Assembly (NCBI GenBank): GCA_965218975.1
Contig: OZ244717.1
Location: 1,056,001-1,120,000 of the forward strand
Length of the DNA: 64,000 nt
Direction of reading: 5' to 3'
Source: Candidatus Oxydemutatoraceae bacterium
GTDB taxonomy: Bacteria; Pseudomonadota; Gammaproteobacteria; Poriferisulfidales; Oxydemutatoraceae
Shown here piece by piece: positions 12,606 through 28,151 of this stretch. Both the position numbers and the translations under genes were made by a program. The first letter of the stretch is position 1. Each line of letters starts with the position of its first letter. The notes beneath the pieces are model-generated. The model saw nothing but the letters and a program-made list of their open reading frames with translations, was not told where the DNA came from and ran no database searches.

Positions 12606-13733
12606 ATGGTGGATTTTTCAAAGTTTAACGATCCTATTGCCGGCAATTTGGGTTCCACACCCACGGCTGATCCGACGATGTATAGTCGTCATGTCATCAT
12701 TCGCAAGGGAATCATTAAAAGTATTAGAAATCTTACTTATGATACTTATGAGCTCATTGTGAAATGTGAAGACGATCAAGGTGAGGTTTTAGAAAGAAAA
12801 GCCGGGCAATATGCGACACTAATGCCTGATTACTTGGATAAGCCTAGGTCTTATTCGTTTGCTCGGGCTCCCGAATGTGAGAAACCGGGCGAATATACTT
12901 TCTTTATTCGTTTGCTGCATGGCGGGTTATTCTCAGGGTGGCTATTTGAGGAAGATCGCACCAATCACCCGCTGACAATTAGCGGACCATTGGGCAACTT
13001 TGGTTTGGATGCATCGGACCGTACCATGCTATGTGTTGCAGGCGGTAGCGGCATGAGTGCGATTTTTGCAATTCTTGAGCATGCAGTTGAGCAACAAGTC
13101 AAGCGTGACGCTTATTTCTTTTATGGTGCGCGCACTCAAAAAGATCTCTATATGCTTGATGAATTACAAGATTTTGTTAAGCGATGGCACCTGAGTTATA
13201 AATTGGAATTTATTCCGGTACTTTCAGGCGACCCTGCCGCTAATAAAAGTTGGACGGGGGCGACCGGATTTGTGACTGATTATGTAGAGAAGGAGTATAT
13301 CCGGAATAAAAAAATTGACGTAGCGGATGCGGTCGCATATTTCTGCGGACCACCGCCGATGATTGATTTAGGTGTCGAGATGCTTTTGAATAAAGGGATG
13401 GATGTCAACGATATCCGGTATGATAAATTTGAGGACGCAAGTTCTCCCGTGCCTGTTATTGACAACTCAAAGTGTGTGTTATGCGATGAATGCCTGATGG
13501 TGAAACCGATCGATAAGTGCATTGTTGAAGTAATCGATTTGAATAATGGTAACGGCTCCGGCTATCGTCCGGTGATTCCGGCTCAAACGTCGGGTCTTTA
13601 TTATAATTCCTTATATATAGATGAGAGTGAATGCATTCGGTGCTACGCTTGCGTTGATGCATGCCCTGCCGATGCGATTAATCCAAATTATGCGAAAGAG
13701 TTAAAAACTTTACGTCGCAGCAGCGGCACTTAA
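12606..13733 (+). CDS. FAD/NAD(P)H-binding reductase (FNR/oxygenase-reductase family) fused to a C-terminal 4Fe-4S dicluster ferredoxin domain
   Basis: RSYSFA, GPLGNF, VAGGSGMS, FYGART and YFCGPPPMI motifs, then CVLCDECLMVKP and CIRCYACVDACP. Confidence 0.88.
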   Translation: MVDFSKFNDPIAGNLGSTPTADPTMYSRHVIIRKGIIKSIRNLTYDTYELIVKCEDDQGEVLERKAGQYATLMPDYLDKPRSYSFARAPECEKPGEYTFFIRLLHGGLFSGWLFEEDRTNHPLTISGPLGNFGLDASDRTMLCVAGGSGMSAIFAILEHAVEQQVKRDAYFFYGARTQKDLYMLDELQDFVKRWHLSYKLEFIPVLSGDPAANKSWTGATGFVTDYVEKEYIRNKKIDVADAVAYFCGPPPMIDLGVEMLLNKGMDVNDIRYDKFEDASSPVPVIDNSKCVLCDECLMVKPIDKCIVEVIDLNNGNGSGYRPVIPAQTSGLYYNSLYIDESECIRCYACVDACPADAINPNYAKELKTLRRSSGT

Positions 13734-13893
13734 AGTTAATAGTTTTCGGCATTTTACATCAGTTATTTTCTGTCGCGCATTTCTTAGCCCGAATGATTTT
13801 TACGTTTTGCTTGTTTTCTTTATTGAAAAACGGACGCGTTCTATATGCGCTGAAGTCAGTTGATATATAATCAATAAATAACTGATTAACGAT

Positions 13894-13970
13894 GCGCCCG
13901 TAGCTCAGTCGGATAGAGTACCTGGCTACGAACCAGGCGGTCGGGAGTTCGAATCTCTCCGGGCGCGCCA
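13894..13970 (+). tRNA. tRNA-Arg (anticodon ACG), copy 1
   Basis: GCGCCCG acceptor stem, TAGCTCAGTCGGATAGAGT D-arm, cctgg-ctACGaa-ccagg anticodon arm, GTTCGAATC T-loop, encoded CCA; 77 nt. Confidence 0.97.
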
Positions 13971-13984
13971 CCGATTACCATAAT

Positions 13985-13997
13985 AATCAAGCAGTTA
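13985..13997 (+). promoter_or_regulatory. IHF-consensus site just downstream of tRNA-Arg (also present in the duplicate)
   Basis: AATCAAGCAGTTA matches WATCAANNNNTTR exactly. Confidence 0.4.
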
Positions 13998-14159
13998 TTA
14001 CTCCGGGCAGTGGTCGCTTGCGGGCAGTGGTCGCTTGGAGTTTTTCTCTAAAGCTAGGTTTTGGTATTAAGGCAAATAGGTGCATACTGTAAGGTACAAA
14101 CACGTTATGTGTTACGATGTAAGAATATTGCCCCAATTCTTTAAAGGAGTTCTGATGTG

Positions 14160-17100
14160 ATGAAGATATGTTTCAAGTTTCTTCCTAATTTATATCTGCT
14201 TGCCGTATTGATTGCTTTAGCCTATGTTCCGCATGCCCATGCACAATCTGGTATTTGCGACCGTAACCTGCAGGTTCGAAATGCGATTCTCGACCGGCTT
14301 GGGCTTGACATGACCGCCTGTGCGGAGGTAACCGAGGACAATCTGAACTCCCTCGCCGGGGAGTTGACAGTGATGGGAACATTTCTCCCCTTGAATGAGG
14401 GGGACTTTGATAATCTTGGCTCTTTGAAAACGCTGAATTTTTTTGGCAATGAAGCAGTGAATCTACCTGCGGGTATATTTGATGCTCTTGACTCTTTGGA
14501 AACGCTGGATGTGTCGGACAATGGATTATCGAGTCTGCCTGCGGGTATATTTGATGCTCTTGACTCTTTGGAAACGCTGGATTTGACGTCCAATCGATTA
14601 TCGAGTCTGCCTGAGGGCATATTTAATAATCTTGGCTCTTTGGCAACGCTGAATTTGCAACTCAATCAATTATCGCGTCTGCCTGAGGGCATATTTAATA
14701 ATCTTGACTCTTTGGCAACGCTGATTTTGCGTGACAATCAATTATCGAGTTTGCCTGCGGGCATATTTGATAGTCTTGGCTCTTTGACAACGCTGAATTT
14801 GGAGAACAATGAATTATCGAGTCTGCCTGCGGGCATATTTAATAATCTTGACTCTTTGGCAACGCTGATTTTGCGTGACAATCAATTATCGAGTCTGCCT
14901 GCGGGTATATTCGAGCGCCTTACATCGCTTGAAACAATTGATTTGAGCGACAATCCCGGCACTGACTCCTTCAAACCGTCGGCGAATGCCGGATCCGACC
15001 GGACTACCACCGTCGGCGAAGTCGTTAGGCTGGACGCTACCGCCACCGATGGCGGTCCGTTTGGGAGCAACCTGAGTTTTGCGTGGTTGCAGGACGGAAG
15101 CGATAGCACGACTGTGACGCTGACCGGTGCCGCTACCGCCACACCCACGTTCACCGTGCCGGCGGACACGCCGGACGGGACCGTGTTTCAATTTGATCTG
15201 ACAGTGGTCGGCGGGAATAAGTTTGAGACTCTCAATGATTCGTCTCGACAGAGACTGACCGACAGCGACTCGGTGGCGGTAACGGCGATTGCAAGAGCGG
15301 GCTTTGGCATTTGCGATCGCACATCTCAGGTTCAAGAGGCGATTCTTGACGCACTTTTTCCGGACGTAGTAAGCTGTGCGGAAGTTACTACTACCCATCT
15401 GGAATCTATCATCAGCCTGGATCTTAGCTTTAGGAATATTTCTGAATTGGATTCAAATGATTTGAACGGGCTCACAGCGCTTTCAATGCTGCCACTAAGC
15501 AACAATCCTTCGTTGATGACTCTGCCCGCTGGCGTATTCGACGGTCTCAGTACGCTTAGCGAACTGTATCTGCAAAGCAACAACCTGACGACCCTAACCA
15601 CCGTTGTGTTTAACGACCTCACTGCGCTTGAAAGACTGGATCTGGGAGATAACGACCTGACGACCCTACCCGCCGGTGTGTTTGGTAGCCTCACCAGGCT
15701 TACAGAGTTGCGTCTGAATCAGAATAATCAGCTGACAATGCTGCCCGCCGGTGTGTTTGACAGCCTCATTGCGCTTAAAGAACTGGATCTGGGAGAGAAC
15801 AACCTGACGACCCTACCCGACGGTGTGTTTGACGGCCTCGCCAGGCTTGAACTGTTGTATCTGGATCAGACTCAGCTGACAATGCTGCCCGCCGGTGTGT
15901 TTGACAGCCTCACCATGCTTAGACTGTTGCATCTGGATGATAATCAGCTGGAAATGCTGCCCGACGACGTGTTCGAACCCCTAACATCATTGACTTCCAT
16001 CACTCTATTTAATAATCCCGGAAGTGAATCCTTCAAGCCGATAGCGAATGCCGGTCCCGACCGAATGGTTATTGTCGGTAATGAAGTTACGTTGGACGGC
16101 ACTGCTACCGACGGCGGTCCGTTCGGGAATAACATCGAATTTATGTGGTCGCAAACCACGGATGATGCTGTGTTAGTTAGTCTTACCAAGTCTAGGACCG
16201 CCAAGCCTATGTTTACTGTGCCGGGGAACACGCCGGTTGGAACGACGCTCCGATTCACCCTGAGAGTTACAGGCAAAGGTGAGACTGTGCATGGTCCAAA
16301 TGACCCGATGGATCACCTTACCACCCATGACGACGTGATAGTGACGGCTGCTGCACGCCCGAACGTAGCGCCGGAATTCACCGGTGCACCAAGTTTCGCG
16401 GTCAACGAAGGGCAGACGATAGTCGGCACGGTGACGGCTGAAGATGCGAATATAGAAGACGAGGTAACGTATTCAATTACCGGCGATGCGGATGATGCCT
16501 TGTTCACCATCGACTCGTCTTCGGGCGAGTTGAGTTTCGTCACTGCACCGGACTATGAGAATCCGGCGGGTATGGACAACGAGTACATGCTCACCGTGAC
16601 GGCGAGCGGCGGCACGGACGCTCGGGCGTTGACGACGACGCAAGCGATTACGGTGACGGTGCTTGATGTGGCTATGACGGTCACGCTTACGGCAGGTGAG
16701 CCAGTGGTAACGGAAGGCGAGTCGGCGGTGTTTACACTCAGCCGGACAGACGCGACGGATGCGCCGGCATTGACAGTGAACATTACGGTAGATGATTCCG
16801 ACGGAGCACTTGCGGCTGCGCCGCCTAATACGGTGACTTTTGATGCCGGTTCTGCGACGACAATACTTAGCCTCGCTACTGACGACGATATGCTTGATGA
16901 GCCCGATAGCATACTGACGGTTGACATCATTAGCATTAGCGGTGTGGGTTATGAGGACGTTTCTCGCGGACCAATTTCGGTAGTAGTTACCGACAATGAC
17001 GTTACGTTCATCGAAGAAATTGCGCCGGGCGGGCCAAATGGATTCATTGTTGATATCGGTGCTGCGGATTACGTTATTATTTCAGGCCGGCATAATGATG

Positions 17101-18704
17101 GGGCAAGGATTAACGCAGACGTTTTGCTGCCGAATATGTTTGGCTCTTCGTTGCGAACCTGTATTGTCTATGGTTTTCCGGAGAATGAACCGACGAACGT
17201 AGAGGAGTGCGATTCTTTGCACGGATCGTTGATAGAAGAGCCGATAGTTCAAGTGCCTGTGTTCGGTAGCGTATTGTACGGGGTTGATGTTGAAGACGAC
17301 GGGGGGGTGACTACTGTTCGGGAAAGTCTAAGGATTTATGTTGCACCGCCAACCGGATTTCCTTCCGAAGTGCGGTGGCGGCATTTTCCTGGCCCTGCAC
17401 CGATAGACATGCTTTTATTGACGTCGGATAATGATGGCGTGCCGGAATCAATTGACTTTGATTTTGAACTAGGGTCCGGCAAGCGAATGGTCGGTCCGAT
17501 AGATGTTTCTTTTGCAAAGGGGCGTAGCACGGTCAGTATAAGTTTATCGTCTGAGGAAAACGTTGTTCGACTTTCAAAAATTAATGGAGTTGCTTTTTCC
17601 GGTAGACGCGATGACGATTTGAGTATGGTCACCGAAGCGATGCTTCGTGACAACAAACTATTTTCGCTGGGCAATAATGAAATAGAGTTTGTTGGTGCGG
17701 AAGAATCGGATGAAAGCCCGATTGAGTCCGTCGAGCCCGTCGTTTCGCTGCCCGAGTTGGTCACATTTGATCAAGTAACCACAATCACGCTGACGGGCGA
17801 TTATATTGTTAATGTTTTCGCATACGCTACGGCGACAGCGACTTTCGATCAAGTGGGTATGTCCGAAGACGTTGTGAGGGGGGTGGTAATTGACATCAGC
17901 AATGATGATACTATCAGGAGTTTTGACAATCGGGGTATGGAGCGTATCATTTCGTTTGACGATGCGGATTTCAGCCCGCACATTTTTCAAGTGGAAATAT
18001 CCACCAACATGGAAGTGATAGCGACTATCAACGCACTCGGAGACGTTGCGACCGATTTAGGAAATGCTAGTACGGAGCAGCTTACACTAGCGACGCGTGG
18101 GGAATTGATGCCTGGTTTCTATGCTTACAAAAACGTTTTCAATCTCCCGCCGTTGCCGGACGGTCGCGAGGTTTCGGACCCGGAAATCGAGGTGTTTGAT
18201 TTCATAGTCACTGACTTCCCCGCTGGCGTTGCAACCATCGTGATTAAGTTGGTTGCTCCGACTCAGGAAGGATCGCTCTACTATAGATATCGTCGTTCGG
18301 AAGACGAGTTGACAGATGACTGGGTACCTTTTGAAGCGGGAGACATTGATAAGATTTTCAGTGCGCCTGCTCCATGCCCGAGTGCGCAAGCGAGTAGAGA
18401 AACGAATGCGAGTATCGGTCAAAGCGATTATGCGTGGCATTTAGCGTCTAGCGGCACTCGCGCAAGCGACCAATGTCTGATGCTTGAAATCGAAGACGGT
18501 TCGGTAAATGATGCCGATGGCAGAGTTAACGGGATTATATTTAGCACCGGCGCAAGTGTTGGCGTCGCTGATGATGGTGACACTGATGACGGTCGTCGTC
18601 GCGGCGGTGGTGGCGCCATCGGTTTATGGTGGCTACTTCTGCTCGTCGGCATAGTCTCCGGAGCTGCTGCGTTGAAGCGTCGAGATGAAGGTTTCAACCC
18701 TTGA
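14160..18704 (+). CDS. Leucine-rich-repeat surface protein A (2 LRR blocks, 2 PKD-like, cadherin, Calx-beta-like, GlyGly-CTERM anchor)
   Basis: Signal peptide ending AHA-QS; 24-aa repeats LxxLxLxxNxLxxLPxGxFxxLxx with GICDR...C caps; ANAG PKD-like domains; cadherin-like APDYENP; GGGGAIGLWWLLLLVG...KRR tail. AAGGAG RBS. The last codons come from the IS end. Confidence 0.88.
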   Translation: MKICFKFLPNLYLLAVLIALAYVPHAHAQSGICDRNLQVRNAILDRLGLDMTACAEVTEDNLNSLAGELTVMGTFLPLNEGDFDNLGSLKTLNFFGNEAVNLPAGIFDALDSLETLDVSDNGLSSLPAGIFDALDSLETLDLTSNRLSSLPEGIFNNLGSLATLNLQLNQLSRLPEGIFNNLDSLATLILRDNQLSSLPAGIFDSLGSLTTLNLENNELSSLPAGIFNNLDSLATLILRDNQLSSLPAGIFERLTSLETIDLSDNPGTDSFKPSANAGSDRTTTVGEVVRLDATATDGGPFGSNLSFAWLQDGSDSTTVTLTGAATATPTFTVPADTPDGTVFQFDLTVVGGNKFETLNDSSRQRLTDSDSVAVTAIARAGFGICDRTSQVQEAILDALFPDVVSCAEVTTTHLESIISLDLSFRNISELDSNDLNGLTALSMLPLSNNPSLMTLPAGVFDGLSTLSELYLQSNNLTTLTTVVFNDLTALERLDLGDNDLTTLPAGVFGSLTRLTELRLNQNNQLTMLPAGVFDSLIALKELDLGENNLTTLPDGVFDGLARLELLYLDQTQLTMLPAGVFDSLTMLRLLHLDDNQLEMLPDDVFEPLTSLTSITLFNNPGSESFKPIANAGPDRMVIVGNEVTLDGTATDGGPFGNNIEFMWSQTTDDAVLVSLTKSRTAKPMFTVPGNTPVGTTLRFTLRVTGKGETVHGPNDPMDHLTTHDDVIVTAAARPNVAPEFTGAPSFAVNEGQTIVGTVTAEDANIEDEVTYSITGDADDALFTIDSSSGELSFVTAPDYENPAGMDNEYMLTVTASGGTDARALTTTQAITVTVLDVAMTVTLTAGEPVVTEGESAVFTLSRTDATDAPALTVNITVDDSDGALAAAPPNTVTFDAGSATTILSLATDDDMLDEPDSILTVDIISISGVGYEDVSRGPISVVVTDNDVTFIEEIAPGGPNGFIVDIGAADYVIISGRHNDGARINADVLLPNMFGSSLRTCIVYGFPENEPTNVEECDSLHGSLIEEPIVQVPVFGSVLYGVDVEDDGGVTTVRESLRIYVAPPTGFPSEVRWRHFPGPAPIDMLLLTSDNDGVPESIDFDFELGSGKRMVGPIDVSFAKGRSTVSISLSSEENVVRLSKINGVAFSGRRDDDLSMVTEAMLRDNKLFSLGNNEIEFVGAEESDESPIESVEPVVSLPELVTFDQVTTITLTGDYIVNVFAYATATATFDQVGMSEDVVRGVVIDISNDDTIRSFDNRGMERIISFDDADFSPHIFQVEISTNMEVIATINALGDVATDLGNASTEQLTLATRGELMPGFYAYKNVFNLPPLPDGREVSDPEIEVFDFIVTDFPAGVATIVIKLVAPTQEGSLYYRYRRSEDELTDDWVPFEAGDIDKIFSAPAPCPSAQASRETNASIGQSDYAWHLASSGTRASDQCLMLEIEDGSVNDADGRVNGIIFSTGASVGVADDGDTDDGRRRGGGGAIGLWWLLLLVGIVSGAAALKRRDEGFNP

Positions 18705-20627
18705 CTTCGTAGGTTTTGGCTCGTAAGTGATTGCCCAGGAATGATTGTGCCATTGCCCTCATGATTCTCAAGGGCACTACATTACGGTGTTGTTTGTAGC
18801 CCTCCGCGCTCAGCTTCCCCCAGGACGTGACTTGTCGGGAAGCGGGAACGGAGCTTCGTTCCATTTCAGGCCAACACTACGGTAAGATCCTATTGGCGTC
18901 CGCGCTCGCGCGGCTCGGCATCGCATACCGCTTCTGTGTGTCGGTACGTACCAAGATGCTCAACTGCAAGGTGTCGAGCTCGCGCCGGATCCGTTCCGCG
19001 CTCATCGGGAAGCCCAGTGCCTTAAGCCGCCGGCGCAGCTGCTGCAAACAGCAGAAGGCCATGTAGCAGATCGCAATATGTGCCTGGATACGCCGCGGCT
19101 TCCAGTGAAAGATCGGGCGGATGCAAAGGTCATGCTTGTTGGTGCGAAAGCAATGTTCTACTTTCCACAACCGGCGGTACTGCGACAGCAACTCCTTCGG
19201 TGCCGTCTCCTCGTTGCCGTGCGCGATGATTGCGCGCAGGCCGTCCCAACGCGCCGCATCGGCCACCTTGGTCACATCAATCTTAACCCGGCCCTTTGCA
19301 GGGAAGCTTAAGTAACAGGCATAGCCGCGCGACACGAAACCTGCCGGGCGCTCGCTGCGTTGATACTTCCGGCGCAACTGTGCCAATATGCGTTCGCGAA
19401 CTTCCCGGTCCTTGCGCGCGCGCCGGCGCGAATAGGTGACTATGATCCGCCGACCTTCGTGGCGAATCATCCGGTAACGCAGGTCCTGCGTTTTGAGCCA
19501 GCCTTGATCGTCTGCTGCACTGAGCGCCTGCAGCTTGATCTTGGCCGGGGCCGACTTGAGACGATAGCCGAGCACATAGGCCAAGCCCTGCTCCTGCAGG
19601 AATGTTTGGTTCTCACGGCTCAGCATCGCCGCATCGGCCACTACTGTAAATACAGCACCCGGATGTCGCTGTTGCAGGGTTGTCACTGCCTGCATCAAGG
19701 TCTTGCCCTCAAAGGTGTTGCCCGGCAACAGTGCGTAGTCCACCGGCAGACCGTCGCAGGTCGTCATCAGTGCCAGCAACACCTGGCAGCGGTGCGGTTT
19801 GCCGTCCTTGCTGTAGCCCTTTGCGCGCAACGGGTCCTCTTGCTCGCTCTCGAAGTACAGGGTCGTGCAATCAAAGAAGAACACTTTGAGGGGCTGATCA
19901 TACAACTTCTGTGCCGCCTGATGAGACTGTTCCCGGATGCGCGCAATCACCGCCTCCTCAAGGTGGTCCATAGTCTGGTAAACCCGGTCGAGATTGAGCG
20001 AAACGCCGCCGCTTCGTTCCAATCCGCACACCGTGTCACGCTTGCTCTGCGGCTGCGCGATACGCGCCGGCACCAGCTCGCGCAGAATGCGGTTGGCTGC
20101 CGTACGCCGTGCACCCAACACCTGGTTCCAACCCAGGTGCGAATAAATTTGCGTGAACGCCTCGCGCACCCCAAGCATCAGCCGCATCTCCTCACGGCAT
20201 TCGGCAAGATCTACTCCGAAGCGCGCCAGACGTGGTGCCAGCCGCGCCTCAGCTGCGAGATCCGCGTACTGCTTCGGTGTGAACAGCGACTGTTGTGCTG
20301 TACCAGCTTGGCGCAGCTCTTCCAAGGTGACCTCGCCGAGCTTGCGCAAAGATGCAAGCTGCTCGGGACTGTCGGCAGTGCCGATATGCCGCACCACACG
20401 CTGACGGGGACCATCGGCAGTGCGCACGGAACGTACAATCTGCAAGCGAGTGCGGCCATGTTCGGGATCATATTTTTCACGCAGGTACATAGACCCGAAT
20501 GATAACCCAAAACAAAAGTGAAAACAAGTCTGGGGGCACTACAATGGATTTTTCGGCGGCGCCCGGATAACCCTATGATAATAAAAGATTTATTTTTTGC
20601 CCAAAGGTCAAAACCTACGAAGTCAAG
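18700..20627 (-). mobile_element. IS1634-family insertion sequence, copy 1
   Basis: Terminal inverted repeats CTTGACTTCGTAGGTTTTG / CAAAACCTACGAAGTCAAG enclosing a DDE transposase. Confidence 0.92.
18877..20490 (-). CDS. IS1634-family transposase, 1-bp insertion near the 3' end truncating the C-terminus
   Basis: FFDCTTLYFE, GYSKDGK, VVADAAM, YRRLWKVEHCFR...IRPIFHW...IQAHIAIC. Relative to copy 2, an extra T (ggatcTtaccg) changes ANRIYRSV... to ANRILP*. Confidence 0.88.
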   Translation of the reverse strand: MYLREKYDPEHGRTRLQIVRSVRTADGPRQRVVRHIGTADSPEQLASLRKLGEVTLEELRQAGTAQQSLFTPKQYADLAAEARLAPRLARFGVDLAECREEMRLMLGVREAFTQIYSHLGWNQVLGARRTAANRILRELVPARIAQPQSKRDTVCGLERSGGVSLNLDRVYQTMDHLEEAVIARIREQSHQAAQKLYDQPLKVFFFDCTTLYFESEQEDPLRAKGYSKDGKPHRCQVLLALMTTCDGLPVDYALLPGNTFEGKTLMQAVTTLQQRHPGAVFTVVADAAMLSRENQTFLQEQGLAYVLGYRLKSAPAKIKLQALSAADDQGWLKTQDLRYRMIRHEGRRIIVTYSRRRARKDREVRERILAQLRRKYQRSERPAGFVSRGYACYLSFPAKGRVKIDVTKVADAARWDGLRAIIAHGNEETAPKELLSQYRRLWKVEHCFRTNKHDLCIRPIFHWKPRRIQAHIAICYMAFCCLQQLRRRLKALGFPMSAERIRRELDTLQLSILVRTDTQKRYAMPSRASADANRILP

Positions 20628-21564
20628 AAAAGCCGGGCAATATGCGACACTAATGCCTGATTACTTGGATAAGCCTAGGTCTTATTCGTTTGCTCGGGCT
20701 CCCGAATGTGAGAAACCGGGCGAATATACTTTCTTTATTCGTTTGCTGCATGGCGGGTTATTCTCAGGGTGGCTATTTGAGGAAGATCGCACCAATCACC
20801 CGCTGACAATTAGCGGACCATTGGGCAACTTTGGTTTGGATGCATCGGACCGTACCATGCTATGTGTTGCAGGCGGTAGCGGCATGAGTGCGATTTTTGC
20901 AATTCTTGAGCATGCAGTTGAGCAACAAGTCAAGCGTGACGCTTATTTCTTTTATGGTGCGCGCACTCAAAAAGATCTCTATATGCTTGATGAATTACAA
21001 GATTTTGTTAAGCGATGGCACCTGAGTTATAAATTGGAATTTATTCCGGTACTTTCAGGCGACCCTGCCGCTAATAAAAGTTGGACGGGGGCGACCGGAT
21101 TTGTGACTGATTATGTGGAGATGGAGTATATCCGGAATAAAAAAATTGACGTGGCGGATGCGGTCGCATATTTCTGCGGACCACCGCCGATGATTGATTT
21201 AGGTGTCGAGATGCTTTTGAATAAAGGGATGGATGTCAACGATATCCGGTATGATAAATTTGAGGATGCAAGTTCTCCCGTGCCTGTTATTGACAACTCA
21301 AAGTGTGTGTTATGCGATGAATGCCTGATGGTGAAACCGATCGATAAGTGCATTGTTGAAGTAATCGATTTGAATAATGGTAACGGCTCCGGCTATCGTC
21401 CGGTGATTCCGGCTCAAACGTCGGGTCTTTATTATAATTCCTTATATATAGATGAGAGTGAATGCATTCGGTGCTACGCTTGCGTTGATGCATGCCCTGC
21501 CGATGCGATTAATCCAAATTATGCGAAAGAGTTAAAAACTTTACGTCGCAGCAGCGGCACTTAA
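20628..21564 (+). pseudogene. 5'-truncated duplicate of the FNR-ferredoxin reductase, in frame with an IS-end-derived leader (ORF 20518-21564)
   Basis: Near-identical to 12797-13733 (a few SNPs, one K to M). It lacks the first ~64 codons of the original. Confidence 0.8.
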
Positions 21565-21724
21565 AGTTAATAGTTTTCGGCATTTTACATCAGTTATTTT
21601 CTGTCGCGCATTTCTTAGCCCGAATGATTTTTACGTTTTGCTTGTTTTCTTTATTGAAAAACGGACGCGTTCTATATGCGCTGAAGTCAGTTGATATATA
21701 ATCAATAAATAACTGATTAACGAT

Positions 21725-21801
21725 GCGCCCGTAGCTCAGTCGGATAGAGTACCTGGCTACGAACCAGGCGGTCGGGAGTTCGAATCTCTCCGGGCGCGCC
21801 A
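21725..21801 (+). tRNA. tRNA-Arg (anticodon ACG), copy 2
   Basis: Identical to 13894-13970. Confidence 0.97.
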
Positions 21802-21990
21802 CCGATTACCATAATAATCAAGCAGTTATTACTCCGGGCAGTGGTCGCTTGCGGGCAGTGGTCGCTTGGAGTTTTTCTCTAAAGCTAGGTTTTGGTATTA
21901 AGGCAAATAGGTGCATACTGTAGGGTACAAACACGTTATGTGTTACGATGTAAAAATATTGCCCCAATTCTTTAAAGGAGTTCTGATGTA

Positions 21991-24900
21991 ATGAAAATGT
22001 GTTTCAAGTTTCTTCCTAATTTATATCTGCTTGCCGTATTGATTGCTTTAGCCTATGTTCCGCATGCCCATGCACAATCTGGTATTTGCGACCGTAACAT
22101 GCGGGTTCAAAATGCGATTCTCGACCAGCTTGCCGACATAGACGACTGTGCGGAGGTAACCGAGGACAATCTGAACTCCCTCGCCGGGGAGTTGACAGTG
22201 ATGGGAACATTTCTCCCCTTGAATGAGGGGGACTTTGATAATCTTGGCTCTTTGACAACGCTGAATTTGAGGAACAATGAATTATCGAGTCTGCCTGCGA
22301 ACATATTTGATGCTCTTGGCTCTTTGGAAACGCTGAATTTGTTGGGCAATGGTGAAATACCGAATCTACCTGAGGGCATATTTGATGAACTTGACTCTTT
22401 GACAACGCTGAATTTGGCGGGCAATGGATTTTTGAGTCTGTCTGCGGGTATATTTAATAATCTTGGCTCTTTGACAACGCTGAGTTTGAGGAACGAGAAT
22501 TTTTCGAGTCTGCCTGCGGGTATATTTGATGCTCTTGGCTCTTTGACAACGCTGAATTTGGAGAACAATTTTTTATCGAGTCTGCCTGCGGGCATATTTA
22601 ATAATCTTGACTCTTTGACAACGCTGAATTTGTCGAAAAATCTTTTAACGCTGTATTTGGAGAACAATGAATTATCGAGTCTGCCTGCGGGTATATTCGA
22701 GCGCCTCACATCGCTTGAAACAATTGATTTGCGCGACAATCCCGGCAGTAACTCCTTCAAACCGTTGGCGAATGCCGGATCCGACCTGACTATCACCGTC
22801 GGCGAAGTCGTTAGGCTGGACGCTACCGCCACCGATGGCGGTCCGTTTGGGAGCAACCTGAGTTTTGCGTGGTTGCAGGACGGAAGCGATAGCACGACTG
22901 TGACGCTGACCGATGCCGCTACCGCCACACCCACGTTCACCGTGCCGGCGGACACGCCGGACGGGACCGTGTTTCAATTTGATCTGACAGTGGTCGGCGG
23001 GAATAAGTTTGGGACTCTTGATGATTCGTCTCAACAGAGACTGACCGACAGCGACTCGGTGGCGGTAACGGCTGTTGTAATACCGCCTGGCGCGCCGACG
23101 ACTTTGACGGCAACGCCGGGTAACGGGCAGGTAGAATTGGAGTGGGCGCCGCCGGGAGATATCGGCGGTAGCGCGATCACGCATTATGAATATCGGCAGA
23201 GAACCACTGGCGAAGATTTCGGTTCATGGACGGATATTCCGGACGGCGATGATGATGCGGATAGTGACGCCGGCAACGAGACGCGTTCTACAGTCACTAG
23301 TCTGACGAACGGCATCGCATACACCTTTCAAGTGCGCGCAGTCAGCGCCGGCGGGGGCCCAGGCGAGGCAACCGACGAAGTAACGGCGATTGCAGGAATG
23401 GGCTTGGGCATTTGCGATCGTACACGGCAGGTTCAAGAGGCGATTCTCGACCGGCTTGGGCTTGACATGACCGTGACCGCCTGTGCGGAGGTAACCGAGG
23501 ACAATCTGAACACCCTCGCCGGGGGGTTGGACTTTTCTCTAGAAGGAATTACCGCCCTGAAGGAGGGGGACTTTGATGATCTTGACTCTTTGACAACGTT
23601 GAATTTGCGGGGCAACTCTAGAAATCATTTGTCGAGTCTGCCTGCGGATATATTTGATGATCTTACCTCTTTGACAACGCTGGATTTGGGTTTCAATCGA
23701 TTATCGAGTCTGCCTGCGAGTCTGCCTCCGGGCATATTTGATGATCTTGACTCTTTGGAAACGCTGGATTTGACGTTCAATCTATTATCGAGTCTGCCTC
23801 CGGGCATATTTGATGCTCTTGACTCTTTGGAAACGCTGCTTTTGTTGAACAATGAAATATCGAGTCTGCCTGAGGACATATTTAATAGTCTTGGCTCTTT
23901 GACAACGCTGAATTTGCAACTCAATCAATTATCGCGTCTGCCTGAGGGCATATTTAATAATCTTGACTCTTTGGCAACGCTGATTTTGCGTGACAATCAA
24001 TTATCGAGTTTGCCTGCGGGCATATTTGATAGTCTTGGCTCTTTGACAACGCTGAATTTGCGTGGCAATCAATTATCGCGTCTGCCTGAGGGCATATTTA
24101 ATAATCTTGACTCTTTGGCAACGCTGATTTTGCGTGACAATCGATTATCGAGTTTGCCTGCGGGCATATTCGAGCGCCTCACATCGCTTAAAACAATTGA
24201 TTTGCGCGACAATCCCGGCACTGACTCCTTCATACCGTCGGCGAATGCCGGATCCGATCGGACCGCCGCCCCCGACGAAGTCGTTATGCTGGACGCTACC
24301 GCTACCGACGGCGGTCCGTTCGGGAGCAACCTGAGTTTTGCGTGGTTGCAGGACGGAAGCGATAGCACGACTGTGACGTTGACCGGCGCCGCTACCGCCA
24401 CGCCCACGTTCACCGTGCCGGTGGGCACGCCGCTGGACGGGATCGTGTTTCGATTTGATCTGACAGTGGTCGGCGGGAATAAGTTTGGGACTCTTGATGA
24501 TTCCTCTCGACGGAGACTGACCGACGACAGCGCCTCGGTGGAGGTAACGGTTGGAATACCGCCCGGCGCGCCGATGTTTTTGACAGCAACGTCGGGCAAG
24601 GGGCAGGTAGGATTGGAGTGGATGTCGCCGGGCGGTATCGGCAGCACAATCACGCATTATGAATATCGGCAGAGAACCACTGGCGAAGATTTCGGTTCAT
24701 GGACGGATATTCCGGACGGCGATGATGCGAATAGTGACGCCGGCAACGAGACGCGTTATACAGTCACTAGTCTGACGAACGGCATCGCATACACCTTTCA
24801 AGTGCGCGCAGTCAGCGCCGCGGGCCCAGGCGAGGCAACCGACGAAGTAACGGCGATTGCAGGAATGGGCTTGGGCATTTGCGATCGTACACGGCAGGTT

Positions 24901-27771
24901 CAAGAGGGGATTCTCAGCGAGCTTTCCGATGCAACCGACTGTGCGGTGGTAGCCGATACCGATCTGAACTCTATCATTGAGCTGGATCTGGCCGGAACTG
25001 AAATTACCGCCCTGAAGGTAGGAGACTTTGCCGGACTCGCTACGATGACGACGCTGAATCTGAGCTTTAATGAACTATCGAGTTTGCCCGCTGGCGTATT
25101 CGATGGTCTCAGCACGCTTGAACGTCTATATATGCAAAAAATCGGCCTGACGACCCTGACAGAAAGTGTGTTTAACGACCTCACTGCACTTAAAGAACTG
25201 GATCTGGTAGAGAACAAACTGACAACCCTGCCCGGCGGTGTGTTTGACAGCACCACCATGCTTAATCGGTTGTATCTGAATGATAATCAGTTGGAAATGC
25301 TGCCCGACGACGTGTTCGAGCGCTTAACATCATTGGATTTCATCACTCTATTCCGTAATCCCGACAGTGAATCCTTCAAACCGATGGCAAATGCCGGTCC
25401 CGACCGAGAGGTTATTGCCGGTGACAGAGTTACGTTGGAGTTGGACGGCACTGCTACCGACGGCGGTCCGTTCGGGAATAACATTGAATTTTCTTGGTCG
25501 CGCGACGATCTTTTGGATACAGAGGGGCTTACCAAGTGGACAACCGCCAGGCCTATGTTTATTGTGCCGGGGAACACGCCGGTTGGAACGACGCTCCGAC
25601 TCACCCTGACGGTTAGAGGCAAAGGTGAGACTGCACCTCGATTCGATGACCCGAGAGGTCACCTTACCGACCGTACCACATTGACAGTGACGGTTCTACC
25701 CCGGCCTAAGATATCAATCATGCTGCCACCCGGTGGGGAGTCGGTGGTGGAAGGGGAACCTGCGGTGTTCATACTGAACCGGACGGAGTCGGCAAATACG
25801 GCGCTGACGGTGAATATTAAGGTGATTAGGACGGTTTTTGACTCGGCGCCGCCCAGTACGGTGACTGCGGTGCTTGTGGTGCCGCCTGATACGGTGACTT
25901 TTGATGCCGGTTCTGCGACGACAATACTTAGCCTCGCTACTGACGACGATATGCTTGATGAGCCCGATAGCATACTGACGGTTGACATCATTAGCGGTGC
26001 GGGTTATGAGGACGTTTCTCGCGAACCAATTTCGGTAGTAGTTACCGACAATGACGTTACGTTCATCGAAGAAATTGCGCCGGGCGGGCCAAATGGATTC
26101 ATTGTTGATATCGGTGCTGCGGATTACGTTATTATTTCAGGCCGGCATAATGATGGGGCAAGGATTAACGCAGACGTTTTGCTGCCGGATATGTTTGGCT
26201 CTTCGTTGCGAACCTGTATTGTCTATGGTTTTCCGGAGAATGAACCGACGAACGCAGAGGAGTGCGATTCTTTGCACGGATCGTTGATAGAAGAGCCGAT
26301 AGTTCAAGTGCCTGTGTTCGGTAGCGTATTGTACGGGGTTGATGTTGAAGACGACGGGGGGGTGACTACTGTTCGGGAAAGTCTAAGGATTTATGTTGCA
26401 CCGCCAACCGGATTTCCTTCCGAAGTGCGGTGGCGGCATTTTCCTGGCCCTGCACCGATAGACATGCTTTTATTGACGTCGGATAATGATGGCGTGCCGG
26501 AATCAATTGACTTTGATTTTGAACTAGGGTCCGGCAAGCGAATGGTCGGTCCGATAGATGTTTCTTTTGCAAAGGGGCGTAGCACGGTCAGTATAAGTTT
26601 ATTGCCTGAGGAAAACGTTGTTCGACTTTCAAAAATTAATGGAGTTGCTTTTTCCGGTAGACGCGATGACGATTTGAGTATGGTCACCGAAGCGATGCTT
26701 CGTGACAACAAACTATTTTCGCTGGGCAATAATGAAATAGAGTTTGTTGATGCGAAAGAACCGGATGAAAGCCCGATTGAGTCCGTCGAGCCCGTCGTTT
26801 CGCTGCCCGAGTTGGTCACGTTTGATCAAGTAACCACAATCACGCTGACGGGCGATTATATTGTTAATGTTTTCGCATACGCTACGGCGACAGCGACTTT
26901 CGATCAAGTGGGTATGTCCGAAGACGTTGTGAGGGGGGTGGTAATTGACATCAGCAATGATGATACTATCAGGAGTTTTGACAATCGGGGTATGGAGCGT
27001 ATCATTTCGTTTGACGATGCGGATTTCAGCCCGCACATTTTTCAAGTGGAAATATCCACCAACATGGAAGTGATAGCGACTATCAACGCACTCGGAGACG
27101 TTGCGACCGATTTAGGAAATGCTAGTACGGAGCAGCTTACACTAACGACGCGTGGGGAATTGCTGCCTGGTTTCTATGCTTACAAAAACGTTTTCAATCT
27201 CCCGCCGTTGCCGGACGGTCGCGAGGTTTCGGACCCGGAAATCGAGGTGTTTGATTTCATAGTCACTGACTTCCCCGCCGGCGTTGCAACTATCGTAATT
27301 GAGTTGGCTGCTCCGACTCAGGAAGGATCACTCTACTATAGATATCGTCGTTCGGAAGATGATTCGACAGATGACTGGGTACCTTTTGAAGCGGGAGACA
27401 TTGATAAGATTTTCAGTGCACCTGCTCCATGCCCGAGTGCGCAAGCGAGTAGAGAAACGAATGCGGGTGGCAGTCAAAACGATTATGCGTGGTATTTAGC
27501 GTCTAGCGGCACTCGCGCAAACGACCAATGTCTGATGCTTGAAATTGAAGACGGTTCGGTAAATGATGCCGATGGCAGAGTTAACGGGATTATATTTAGC
27601 ACCGGCGCAAGTGTTGGCGTCGCTGATGATGGTGTCACTGATGACGGTCATCGTCGCGGCGGTAGTGGCGCCATCGGTTTATGGTGGCTACTTCTGCTCG
27701 TCGGCATAGTCTCTGGAGCTGCTGCGTTGAAGCGTCGAGATGAAGGTTTCAACCGACGATTTTTACCTTAA
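21991..27771 (+). CDS. Leucine-rich-repeat surface protein B (3 LRR blocks, 3 PKD-like, 2 FN3, Calx-beta-like, GlyGly-CTERM anchor)
   Basis: 1926 aa. Nearly the same signal peptide and near-identical C-terminal ~600 aa as protein A; FN3 motif LEWAPPGDIGGSAITHYEY...LTNGIAYTFQVRAV twice; GGSGAIGLWWLLLLVG...KRR tail. Confidence 0.88.
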   Translation: MKMCFKFLPNLYLLAVLIALAYVPHAHAQSGICDRNMRVQNAILDQLADIDDCAEVTEDNLNSLAGELTVMGTFLPLNEGDFDNLGSLTTLNLRNNELSSLPANIFDALGSLETLNLLGNGEIPNLPEGIFDELDSLTTLNLAGNGFLSLSAGIFNNLGSLTTLSLRNENFSSLPAGIFDALGSLTTLNLENNFLSSLPAGIFNNLDSLTTLNLSKNLLTLYLENNELSSLPAGIFERLTSLETIDLRDNPGSNSFKPLANAGSDLTITVGEVVRLDATATDGGPFGSNLSFAWLQDGSDSTTVTLTDAATATPTFTVPADTPDGTVFQFDLTVVGGNKFGTLDDSSQQRLTDSDSVAVTAVVIPPGAPTTLTATPGNGQVELEWAPPGDIGGSAITHYEYRQRTTGEDFGSWTDIPDGDDDADSDAGNETRSTVTSLTNGIAYTFQVRAVSAGGGPGEATDEVTAIAGMGLGICDRTRQVQEAILDRLGLDMTVTACAEVTEDNLNTLAGGLDFSLEGITALKEGDFDDLDSLTTLNLRGNSRNHLSSLPADIFDDLTSLTTLDLGFNRLSSLPASLPPGIFDDLDSLETLDLTFNLLSSLPPGIFDALDSLETLLLLNNEISSLPEDIFNSLGSLTTLNLQLNQLSRLPEGIFNNLDSLATLILRDNQLSSLPAGIFDSLGSLTTLNLRGNQLSRLPEGIFNNLDSLATLILRDNRLSSLPAGIFERLTSLKTIDLRDNPGTDSFIPSANAGSDRTAAPDEVVMLDATATDGGPFGSNLSFAWLQDGSDSTTVTLTGAATATPTFTVPVGTPLDGIVFRFDLTVVGGNKFGTLDDSSRRRLTDDSASVEVTVGIPPGAPMFLTATSGKGQVGLEWMSPGGIGSTITHYEYRQRTTGEDFGSWTDIPDGDDANSDAGNETRYTVTSLTNGIAYTFQVRAVSAAGPGEATDEVTAIAGMGLGICDRTRQVQEGILSELSDATDCAVVADTDLNSIIELDLAGTEITALKVGDFAGLATMTTLNLSFNELSSLPAGVFDGLSTLERLYMQKIGLTTLTESVFNDLTALKELDLVENKLTTLPGGVFDSTTMLNRLYLNDNQLEMLPDDVFERLTSLDFITLFRNPDSESFKPMANAGPDREVIAGDRVTLELDGTATDGGPFGNNIEFSWSRDDLLDTEGLTKWTTARPMFIVPGNTPVGTTLRLTLTVRGKGETAPRFDDPRGHLTDRTTLTVTVLPRPKISIMLPPGGESVVEGEPAVFILNRTESANTALTVNIKVIRTVFDSAPPSTVTAVLVVPPDTVTFDAGSATTILSLATDDDMLDEPDSILTVDIISGAGYEDVSREPISVVVTDNDVTFIEEIAPGGPNGFIVDIGAADYVIISGRHNDGARINADVLLPDMFGSSLRTCIVYGFPENEPTNAEECDSLHGSLIEEPIVQVPVFGSVLYGVDVEDDGGVTTVRESLRIYVAPPTGFPSEVRWRHFPGPAPIDMLLLTSDNDGVPESIDFDFELGSGKRMVGPIDVSFAKGRSTVSISLLPEENVVRLSKINGVAFSGRRDDDLSMVTEAMLRDNKLFSLGNNEIEFVDAKEPDESPIESVEPVVSLPELVTFDQVTTITLTGDYIVNVFAYATATATFDQVGMSEDVVRGVVIDISNDDTIRSFDNRGMERIISFDDADFSPHIFQVEISTNMEVIATINALGDVATDLGNASTEQLTLTTRGELLPGFYAYKNVFNLPPLPDGREVSDPEIEVFDFIVTDFPAGVATIVIELAAPTQEGSLYYRYRRSEDDSTDDWVPFEAGDIDKIFSAPAPCPSAQASRETNAGGSQNDYAWYLASSGTRANDQCLMLEIEDGSVNDADGRVNGIIFSTGASVGVADDGVTDDGHRRGGSGAIGLWWLLLLVGIVSGAAALKRRDEGFNRRFLP

Positions 27772-28151
27772 AAATTGCTGTCGGTTCGTTCGCCTTTTTA
27801 TTGATTCAAAACAAATAAGTATGGGGATCTCGGACTAAACTTCACGTGCTGACTTTGTTGAGCGGATAGGTGGTAGTATTCGGCAACGTTATCAGCGCGA
27901 CGATGACATTAAAAATTAATGCTAATGCTTTTGTAAGGCAAGCGCTGCCGGATAACCCGTATGCAGATTATGCACACTAGACCGATTAGTTTGGAAAATC
28001 TACAGCAGTGATGAGAAAAATGCGCAGATAAGCATGATCAAGTGCTAATAAGATGAGGAGGGTATAAATAGTTAGCTTTGCTGCCGGCTACGCGGGAAAT
28101 GACGAAGCGCGGGAGCGGTATAACAAAAACGGAGTGGGGTAAAATGCTCAA

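Follow-up and report, generated by a model that had tools for sequence, protein, structure and literature searches.

Tandem copies of a modular leucine-rich repeat gene with near-identical flanks, mosaic middles, and an insertion sequence at the junction

Genes encoding leucine-rich repeat (LRR) proteins evolve by recombination in the Listeria internalin family and in plant R-gene clusters, and eukaryote-like repeat proteins with LRR, cadherin, and FN3 domains are found in host-associated bacteria. In lampreys and hagfish, variable lymphocyte receptors (VLRs) are assembled from an incomplete germline gene and flanking partial cassettes with an AID/APOBEC-like cytidine deaminase, and in the bacterial pilE/pilS, vlsE, and tprK systems, antigenic variation arises by gene conversion from silent cassettes. 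Recombination-driven evolution of an LRR surface-protein family is described for the PSA proteins of Leishmania (PMC2584048). PMC13423834 (Yelin & Kishony 2026) reports "unflanked non-canonical" tandem duplications and amplifications associated with insertion sequences (ISs) in laboratory-evolved bacteria, and PMC3784515 reports that transformation in S. pneumoniae yields merodiploids flanked by IS-derived repeats. Here, two LRR genes, A and B, are described in a 64,000-nt stretch (the window) of the genome of a Candidatus Oxydemutatoraceae bacterium (G000), which is one contig of 2.081 Mb with 99.44% completeness. The pair is interpreted, with a probability of roughly 0.68, as an IS-joined tandem duplication whose middles were reshuffled by ordinary homologous recombination and not by programmed, immune-receptor-like assembly.

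The locus resembles the PSA, internalin, and R-gene families in its multigene LRR arrays, change of repeat number, gene conversion or mosaic alleles, and raised ratio of nonsynonymous to synonymous divergence (dN/dS) on the LRR face. It differs from them in belonging to another lineage, in carrying several cap-LRR-PKD-FN3 super-modules on a stalk with a rhombosortase-type anchor, and in consisting of IS-joined tandem copies. As in host-associated bacteria, the LRR, cadherin, and FN3 repertoire is strongly expanded in a small genome, although host association of the source organism is not established.

Two copies joined by one insertion sequence

One segment occurs twice in the window, at 12794/12797-18699 and 20625/20628-27754, with sharp borders in blastn searches and alignments. 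Positions are those of the window unless prefixed with G000, and the features of the duplication are as follows.

12606..13733, plus strand: intact reductase gene, 375 aa, FAD/NAD/4Fe-4S type (Pfam NAD_binding_1, Fer4, FAD_binding_6), within copy 1 from about 12797
12797..18699, plus strand: duplication copy 1 (3' part of the reductase gene, tRNA-Arg, gene A), left border uncertain by a few nt (12794-12801)
13894..13970, plus strand: tRNA-Arg(ACG), copy 1 (ARAGORN)
14160..18704, plus strand: gene A, 1514 aa from ATG (1515 from GTG at 14157; open reading frame [ORF] and Pfam)
18700..20627, minus strand: IS element, exactly between the copies, with inverted terminal repeats of about 19 nt
20628..21564, plus strand: second reductase copy, 5'-truncated, opening copy 2 (duplication alignment)
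21725..21801, plus strand: tRNA-Arg(ACG), copy 2 (ARAGORN)
21991..27771, plus strand: gene B, 1926 aa, with its native end (ORF and Pfam)

The IS is about 1.93 kb long and carries a DDE_Tnp_1 transposase gene (18877-20490, minus strand; Pfam). Twelve further full-length copies in the genome are 94.1 to 97.3% identical and have the same ends (one letter off in one copy), which indicates that the junction IS is complete. Copy 2 begins within the reductase gene, and its reductase is therefore truncated at the 5' end. Copy 1 stops four codons short of the native LRR gene end, and the last codon and stop of gene A come from the end of the IS. No IS was found at the outer duplication borders, since the reductase of copy 1 is uninterrupted before 12797 and gene B enters unique DNA at 27755. 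The nearest other IS copy in the window is at about 37600-39510, with its transposase frame at 37710-39413. At the 12 other copies, no consistent target-site duplication was visible, and its absence at the A/B junction is thus no argument.

A single complete IS at the junction and IS-free outer borders, the two marks of an unflanked IS-associated tandem duplication, are both present. As in the cases of PMC13423834, one IS joins two loci that lie far apart in the single-copy map, the segment lies on both sides, and the outer borders are free of ISs. In contrast, the cases described there arose recently by amplification in E. coli and Acinetobacter evolved in the laboratory under drug selection, whereas the present copies are two in number, lie in a natural genome, and later diverged and recombined; the model in that paper relies on replicative IS1, whereas the present IS is of the DDE_Tnp_1 type. 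The A/B pair most likely arose as such an unflanked duplication, with one IS copy connecting the end of gene A to an internal site of the reductase gene.

The initial annotation described the flanks of the two genes as differing by few substitutions. They do: the left flank is 99.6% identical (6 differences in 1363 nt), and the C-terminal 1879 nt are 98.1% identical. By part, A and B compare as follows.

Reductase part: 936/940 identical
Spacer between reductase and tRNA: 160/160 identical
tRNA-Arg(ACG): 77/77 identical
Spacer from tRNA to start codon: 184/186 identical
Signal-peptide codons: 84/87 identical
C-terminal region: 1879 columns with 1838 matches, 35 mismatches, and one 6-nt indel

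The sole C-terminal indel (16928-16933) concerns a 6-nt tandem repeat of which A has two copies and B one, and it makes A longer by two residues. No terminator-like site was found after gene B.

Divergence along the pair is uneven. Synonymous (dS) and nonsynonymous (dN) divergence between A and B, as Nei-Gojobori estimates per segment, were as follows.

Reductase: dS 0.015, dN 0.0014, dN/dS 0.09
C-terminal region, first 1.24 kb: dS 0.0034 (1 synonymous difference), dN 0.0107 (10 nonsynonymous), dN/dS 3.11
C-terminal region, last 0.64 kb: dS 0.055, dN 0.034, dN/dS 0.61
PKD of A super-module 1 and B super-module 1 (A1/B1): dS 0.02, dN 0.035, dN/dS 1.75
PKD of A super-module 1 and B super-module 2 (A1/B2): dS 0.139, dN 0.065, dN/dS 0.47
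A super-module 2 and B super-module 3 (A2/B3): dS 0.33, dN 0.27, dN/dS 0.81

Even the two halves of the C-terminal region differ in synonymous differences (P = 0.001). Values of dS so unequal imply segments of very different age, which requires recombination and rules out a single old, even duplication. The uniform and old divergence that had been named as the counter-case is contradicted by a dS running from 0.0034 to 0.33. The dN/dS ratio was 0.5 to 3.1 in the surface protein versus 0.09 in the reductase, with small counts (P = 0.47 for the 10-versus-1 contrast).

Mosaic structure of the middles

Each super-module (SM) opens with a two-Cys N-cap and continues through LRRs of 24 residues to an LRRCT-like end and a PKD/Ig-like domain, behind which FN3 usually stands. 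Gene A encodes a signal peptide, two cap-LRR-PKD super-modules, a cadherin domain, a Calx-like domain, a stalk of about 600 aa, and a Gly-run/hydrophobic/basic tail, and gene B encodes a signal peptide, SM-B1 with FN3, SM-B2 with FN3, SM-B3, a Calx-like domain, the stalk, and a sorting tail. The described difference between the middles, with two LRR blocks plus cadherin in A and three LRR blocks plus two FN3 domains in B, was borne out by Pfam and by the number of GICDR-type N-caps (2 versus 3). Gene A scored 247.8 bits for LRR_8 (cut-off 27) and 37.7 for Cadherin (cut-off 28.8; aa 746-836) with no fn3, and gene B scored 268.7 bits for LRR_8 and 66.5 for fn3 (cut-off 25; two stretches) with no Cadherin. 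The modules, all on the plus strand, are as follows.

14244..15284, plus strand: A super-module 1 (N-cap, 7 LRR units, LRRCT, PKD-like; FN3 absent), a B1/B2-like mosaic
14644..14801, plus strand: 158-nt exact tract, identical to B block 2 at 23903-24060 (alignment)
15306..16346, plus strand: A super-module 2, with a type II PKD, at the position corresponding to B3
16392..16664, plus strand: cadherin domain, in A only (Pfam, genome blastn)
16821..18699, plus strand: near-constant C-terminal region of A, from the second half of the Calx-like domain through the stalk and the choice-of-anchor U-like part to the sorting tail
22075..23072, plus strand: B super-module 1, with a 33-residue hybrid LRR unit inside, then FN3 to about 23376
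23407..24550, plus strand: B super-module 2, apparent partner of A LRR units 4-7, then FN3 (aa 860-954, 24568-24852; Pfam)
24874..25692, plus strand: B super-module 3 (type II PKD), with about 3 LRR units fewer than A2
25882..27754, plus strand: near-constant C-terminal region of B (alignment with A)

When A was painted in 72-nt windows with B and with the whole genome as references, its upstream region and signal peptide fell on the main diagonal with B. In the cap, a patch at about 14272-14310 is B2-like, with seven ungapped informative sites in a row in a surrounding stretch where 34 sites match B1 and 9 match B2; such a run appeared in 8 of 200000 shuffles of the informative sites. Positions 14318-14427 of A are identical over 110 nt to 22146-22255 in B block 1, an exact run length reached in 1 of 200000 shuffles of the differing columns on the A1/B1 diagonal. 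LRR units 1-3 of A (about 14430-14600) have a best match anywhere of 84 to 89%. The length of the 158-nt tract that follows was reached in 3 of 200000 shuffles of the differing columns on the A1/B2 diagonal, and the units after 14801 are still B2-like up to about 14884. At about 14885, the apparent donor switches from B2-like to B1-like: the LRRCT and PKD are 96.7% identical to B1 versus 92.2% to B2, and two stretches of 119 and 98 nt match the B1 PKD exactly. The exact tracts in block 1 are embedded in a background of 80 to 88% identity, and shuffles so rarely reach the observed runs (P ~1e-5) that the mosaic is real and not a product of chance. The patchwork of B1 and B2 sequence previously read from block 1 of A was thereby recovered where it had been placed, and the suggested recombination check, carried out by permutation, gave a significant signal for the exact tracts.

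The remaining middle is also composite. SM-A2 and SM-B3 have about 78 to 86% nucleotide identity (80.3% in LRRCT plus PKD), and the additional units of A2 shift the alignment diagonal by 147 and 72 nt, in register. The PKD of B3 is nearest to that of A2, and its cap is nearest to paralogues P1/P2 (80.0%, versus 65 to 67% to A2), which indicates that the module ancestries disagree. The cadherin domain and the first half of the Calx-like domain of A (about 16330-16820) have no counterpart in B and are about 82 to 91% identical to dozens of repeats in giant ORFs. High A/B identity returns abruptly at 16821/25882, within the Calx-like domain and not at a domain border, and this switch looks like a homologous-recombination breakpoint rather than a clean "cassette" exchange. 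Within B, the two FN3-plus-cap stretches have exact runs of 51 to 86 nt in common, and the hybrid LRR unit of B1 is out of register and is a scar of out-of-register exchange. Elsewhere in the genome, a 7845-aa ORF contains a tandem duplication of an approximately 5.4-kb block that carries two LRR super-modules (G000:C1:716347-727200; caps at 716347 and 721780), the compared cap and FN3 stretches being 100% and the PKD 99.7% identical, as in a very recent internal duplication.

After the duplication, RecA-type homologous recombination would have acted on the many 72-nt LRR units, which resemble one another, and on larger modules. Gene conversion would have moved short tracts between A and B and within B, and unequal crossing-over would have added or removed whole repeat units and domains, with the loss of FN3 from A. 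A would have gained its cadherin-Calx piece from giant cadherin-repeat genes. The most diverged parts, including the last super-module, could be either relics of an old duplication whose flanks were continually homogenised or an older, diverged allele imported from another strain. The result would be a pair of receptors that look expressed and that carry different tips for binding on a common stalk. The recombination pathway and the direction of each transfer are our inference. Gene conversion or shuffling between LRR units, as proposed in the initial annotation, agrees with the exact tracts, the donor switch, unit gain and loss in register, the hybrid unit, and the unequal dS. "Fast" holds in a relative sense only, in that the tracts are no older than the flank divergence.

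Other samples and competing explanations

Five runs from two studies contain the stretch, with 0.70 to 0.79 of its sampled words present, and contigs of X1, X2, X4, and X5 were compared; the results refer to the pieces listed. From 15257, the junction between the A PKD and cap 2 is present in contigs over 501 nt in X1 and 491 nt in X2 with 0 other letters and over 544 nt in X4 with 5. B-specific stretches are present at 24965-25336 (X1) and 22670-23023 (X4), and the end of B into downstream DNA (27725-28221) is present in contigs of X1, X2, and X4. No joints inside the LRR blocks are listed in these three runs. In X2, the shared flanks are single contigs with depths of 336, 311, 316, and 298, about twice those of the unique parts (161, 132, and 144), which fits two resident copies identical in their flanks, contig depths not being copy numbers. 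Contigs of X2 and X4 stop at 12823, as the duplication border predicts. X1 has B letters at 13322 and 13436, A letters at 13286 and 13291, and a B letter at 17200 on an otherwise A-type C-terminal contig joined to B-specific 25570-25888. These patterns fit ongoing homogenisation of the two copies and also strain differences in the presence of the duplication.

Some further features were seen in these samples. One-codon (3-nt) indels in gene B at 24432, 24720, and 25501 are polymorphic within and between runs, the deletion at 24432 accounting for 26.7 of 44.9 depth in X1. Contigs of X1, X2, and X4 join the end of the tRNA-Arg (13893-13970, 21724-21801) to its own start with 8 letters between, which suggests a head-to-tail tRNA-Arg array in the samples, possibly in another organism. 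Two joints in X5, one from 14365 to 25002 and one from 25056 to 23717 (at a depth of about 6, with sides of 27 to 32 letters), were set aside, as were bins without cover.

Several points weigh against reshuffling between the two resident copies as the whole account. The best in-genome matches to the most diverged parts (A units 1-3, A2, and B3) are 78 to 89% identical, which places their donor outside the genome and makes intragenomic conversion alone insufficient. The direction of each A/B exchange is not polarised, and diversifying selection and relaxed selection cannot be separated by dN/dS. Searches for close relatives or alleles of the stalk gave 7 matches among 7999 candidates scored in the protein database (the best beyond A and B 37% identical), two loci in genome_contigs (37 to 41% identical over at most 59 residues), and one locus in metagenome_contigs (39% over 46 residues), all so distant that none is usable as an allele. 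A scan for the sigma-70 consensus upstream of gene A (13700-14300) gave 0 sites, and of the "promoter" previously counted among the near-identical parts, only the near-identity of the upstream spacers stood. Surface display and an adhesin function of A and B are inferred. The other-sample data are assembled short contigs with no gene-spanning reads, and the X1 contig is unbroken across 12794-12824, which hints that the duplication may be absent in some strains; such absence would favour the capture of a foreign allele.

According to this alternative, which is unlikely, A and B are alternative alleles of one hypervariable locus from different strains, brought into tandem through IS copies, for example after DNA uptake in the manner of transformation-made merodiploids, and the mosaic stems more from allelic recombination in the population than from exchange between resident copies. 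It would account for a left flank with 6 differences in 1363 nt beside a dS of 0.33 in A2/B3, for the lack of an in-genome donor, and for the single IS between IS-free outer borders. It also agrees with the contrast between X1, whose contig crosses the left border, and X2 and X4, whose contigs stop there, and with the A- and B-specific pieces of X1 at depths of 27 and 19 to 22 versus 35 in the flank. A precedent comes from S. pneumoniae, in which transformation gives rise to merodiploids with IS-derived repeats at their borders (PMC3784515). However, exact A/B tracts of 110 to 158 nt and B-internal tracts of 51 to 86 nt indicate exchange among resident modules too, and the X2 depths fit two resident copies. 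In addition, contig continuity and depth are weak evidence, and no genome of a second strain was found in the protein database, genome_contigs, or metagenome_contigs.

It is very improbable that the duplication, or the arrangement of the 72-nt units in one or both genes, is a product of misassembly. Repeats of 72 nt at 80 to 100% identity and an 8-kb near-duplicate are hard to assemble, no gene-spanning read was examined, and part of the sampled query words is missing from the runs. Nevertheless, the one-contig 2.08-Mb genome carries far longer repeat genes (up to 19552 aa), the frames are intact over 1514 and 1926 codons, and independent short-read contigs are exact at the A junction (X1 and X2), in B-specific stretches, and at the B end. 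The lack of listed joints within the LRR blocks of X1, X2, and X4, the break of X2 contigs at the expected border, and the roughly double depth of the shared parts also argue against misassembly.

Likewise very improbable is programmed diversification, in which a dedicated VLR-like or silent-cassette system would, frequently and within a clone, transfer copies of LRR cassettes to an expression site. In its favor, the LRRs belong to the 24-residue "typical" class of VLRs, with VLR-A, VLR-B, and repebodies among the PDB matches (E 1e-33 to 1e-55), the variability falls on concave-face positions, and the short exact tracts look like patches left by conversion. A paralogous locus with an apparently broken frame could serve as a silent donor, and a low-depth X5 contig has another unit order, although the joints behind this order are short, at depth 6, and unreliable. 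Genome-wide blastn and a motif scan revealed no isolated promoterless LRR cassettes. LRR units are present at 6 loci only, all in long open frames: two stretches in the 7845-aa ORF, an 872-aa frame at 739.8-742.4 kb, a single unit in a 5254-aa ORF, A, and B. The in-genome paralogues are 61 to 89% identical to the A/B modules (65 to 89% to the tracts) and thus too distant as recent donors, and the LRR blocks have their best matches beyond A and B (74 to 90%) inside giant ORFs. In the 99.44%-complete genome, 0 RVT_1 matches were found (a control search matched 3 of 14 genomes), and accordingly no reverse transcriptase with a template repeat near the variable gene, as in diversity-generating retroelements, was seen. 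The sole mobile function nearby is an ordinary multicopy IS. The absence of dedicated diversification machinery is partly supported by the RVT_1 and LRR-locus counts, deaminase families having been outside the search.

A and B share with VLRs the 24-residue "typical" LRRs, variability on the concave face, and an invariant stalk below a variable tip. Unlike VLR genes, they are complete, signal-peptide-bearing ORFs with near-identical upstream regions, with neither an incomplete germline gene nor a flanking library of partial cassettes, and they lack a Cys-rich LRRCT, the array running into a PKD-like domain. The resemblance is a likeness of the repeat and not of the assembly mechanism, and the lamprey-like mechanism and silent donor cassettes envisaged in the initial annotation are not supported. 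As in pilE/pilS, vlsE, and tprK, short conversion tracts alter a surface protein with constant ends; unlike in those systems, no single expression site with promoterless, truncated, near-identical donors exists, and both partners are full genes. Finally, an old, uniformly diverged duplication with flanks conserved by selection alone is rejected, since the stalk and tRNA are plausibly constrained but synonymous divergence is unequal by about 100-fold along the gene pair (Fisher P = 2e-22, C-terminal front versus A2/B3), the noncoding spacers are 344/346 identical, and the truncated, presumably functionless reductase copy is 936/940 identical.

Encoded proteins, distribution, and meaning

A and B are tandem paralogues of a modular, LRR-tipped, predicted surface protein that probably serves as an adhesin or ligand-binding protein. 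Of 19 recognised type-I units, 16 are exactly 24 aa long, as in the "typical" LRR class, and the best PDB sequence matches to the LRRs are LRRTM, LRRC15, LGR4, and VLR. In a single-sequence AlphaFold prediction of A residues 30-376, the LRR solenoid (about 50-230) mostly has a pLDDT of 70 to 94 with strands every 24 residues, and the cap and PKD-like domain have a pLDDT of <50. Variability across the 16 type-I 24-aa units peaks at positions 5, 8, 10, 11, and 13, the x positions of LxxLxLxxNxL, and is also raised at positions 2, 19, 23, and 24. The full stalk is present in five genes of the genome, namely, A, B, and three giant ORFs with 52 to 53% amino acid identity. With variability at the LRR x positions and a stalk common to five genes, the earlier picture of a variable receptor on a constant stalk and anchor is a fair one. 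The choice-of-anchor-U match of gene B (33.1 bits) is barely above the cut-off of 32. The Gly-run/hydrophobic/basic C-terminal tail is present in A, where it is shortened by the IS junction, and in B; among the 14 ORFs with 1400 aa or more, 8 carry it. No GlyGly-CTERM model was found in an NCBIfam scan at E up to 0.1, and a rhombosortase gene (TIGR03902, 141.8 bits, cut-off 84) is present at G000:43033-43494. Identity as a type III effector (XopAC, XopL, or SlrP) was rejected, since the NCBIfam scores were far below the cut-offs (e.g., 123 versus 450 bits) and reflected the shared repeat only.

The 14 ORFs of at least 1400 aa sum to 9.3% of the genome, the largest having 19552 aa (G000, 928220-986875). 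A paralogous LRR/Calx/stalk gene at G000:C1:739769-754032 lies in four consecutive frames of 872, 252, 1217, and 1669 aa and is possibly a pseudogene; a partial IS match (738614-739002) lies just upstream. Two open frames of about 2500 aa, at 2051-9607 in the window and at G000:C1:880580-888220, have C-terminal FN3 and resemble each other in their hydrophobic/Arg-rich ends, which are unlike the Gly-run tail of the LRR genes, with fn3 and a sub-threshold SAD_SRA as the only Pfam matches. Downstream of gene B (28152-51000), the GC content is 0.52 to 0.60 versus about 0.45, and defence-type genes are present, namely, a type I restriction-modification methylase and specificity subunit, a Schlafen/AlbA_2 gene, a YhcG/DUF1016 nuclease, an AAA_13/SMC-like ATPase, and a DUF4062 protein.

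The cap-LRR-PKD super-module was matched in 16 of 41 related genomes, including the source genome, and in 12 of 18 within the same family, with up to 69 matches per genome (68, 69, and 53 in G001, G016, and G018, respectively), which indicates that the family expansion is a lineage trait. The nearest full-architecture homologue is a 1499-aa open frame in G004 that has LRR and stalk together. In the 20 kb examined around it (ORFs unannotated), neither a tRNA-Arg nor the reductase-tRNA-gene order was seen, and for want of matching synteny this genome is uninformative on the ancestral single-copy state.

It is doubtful, though conceivable, that A, B, and the other LRR super-module genes act as a standing recombinational generator of diversity, with frequent conversion between expressed paralogues and between strains. 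If so, the stalk, anchor, and regulatory flank would stay homogeneous while new LRR tips arise, and cells of one population would display different receptors. At the population level, bacteria would then possess a functional counterpart to combinatorial LRR receptor repertoires that needs no dedicated enzymes. On the preferred reading of an IS-joined duplication with ordinary recombination, the locus is a natural case of three known processes acting together, and no new mechanism is indicated. A single-IS "unflanked" duplication would have persisted long enough for its copies to diverge, the LRR arrays would have changed by patchy gene conversion and unequal crossing-over, and the giant surface proteins, which make up about 9% of a 2-Mb genome, would have changed by module gain and loss. 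The window from 12 to 28.5 kb provides a defined locus for gauging natural rates of repeat exchange, and the A/B pair suggests how two different LRR binding tips can be maintained in a small genome while stalk and anchor stay conserved.

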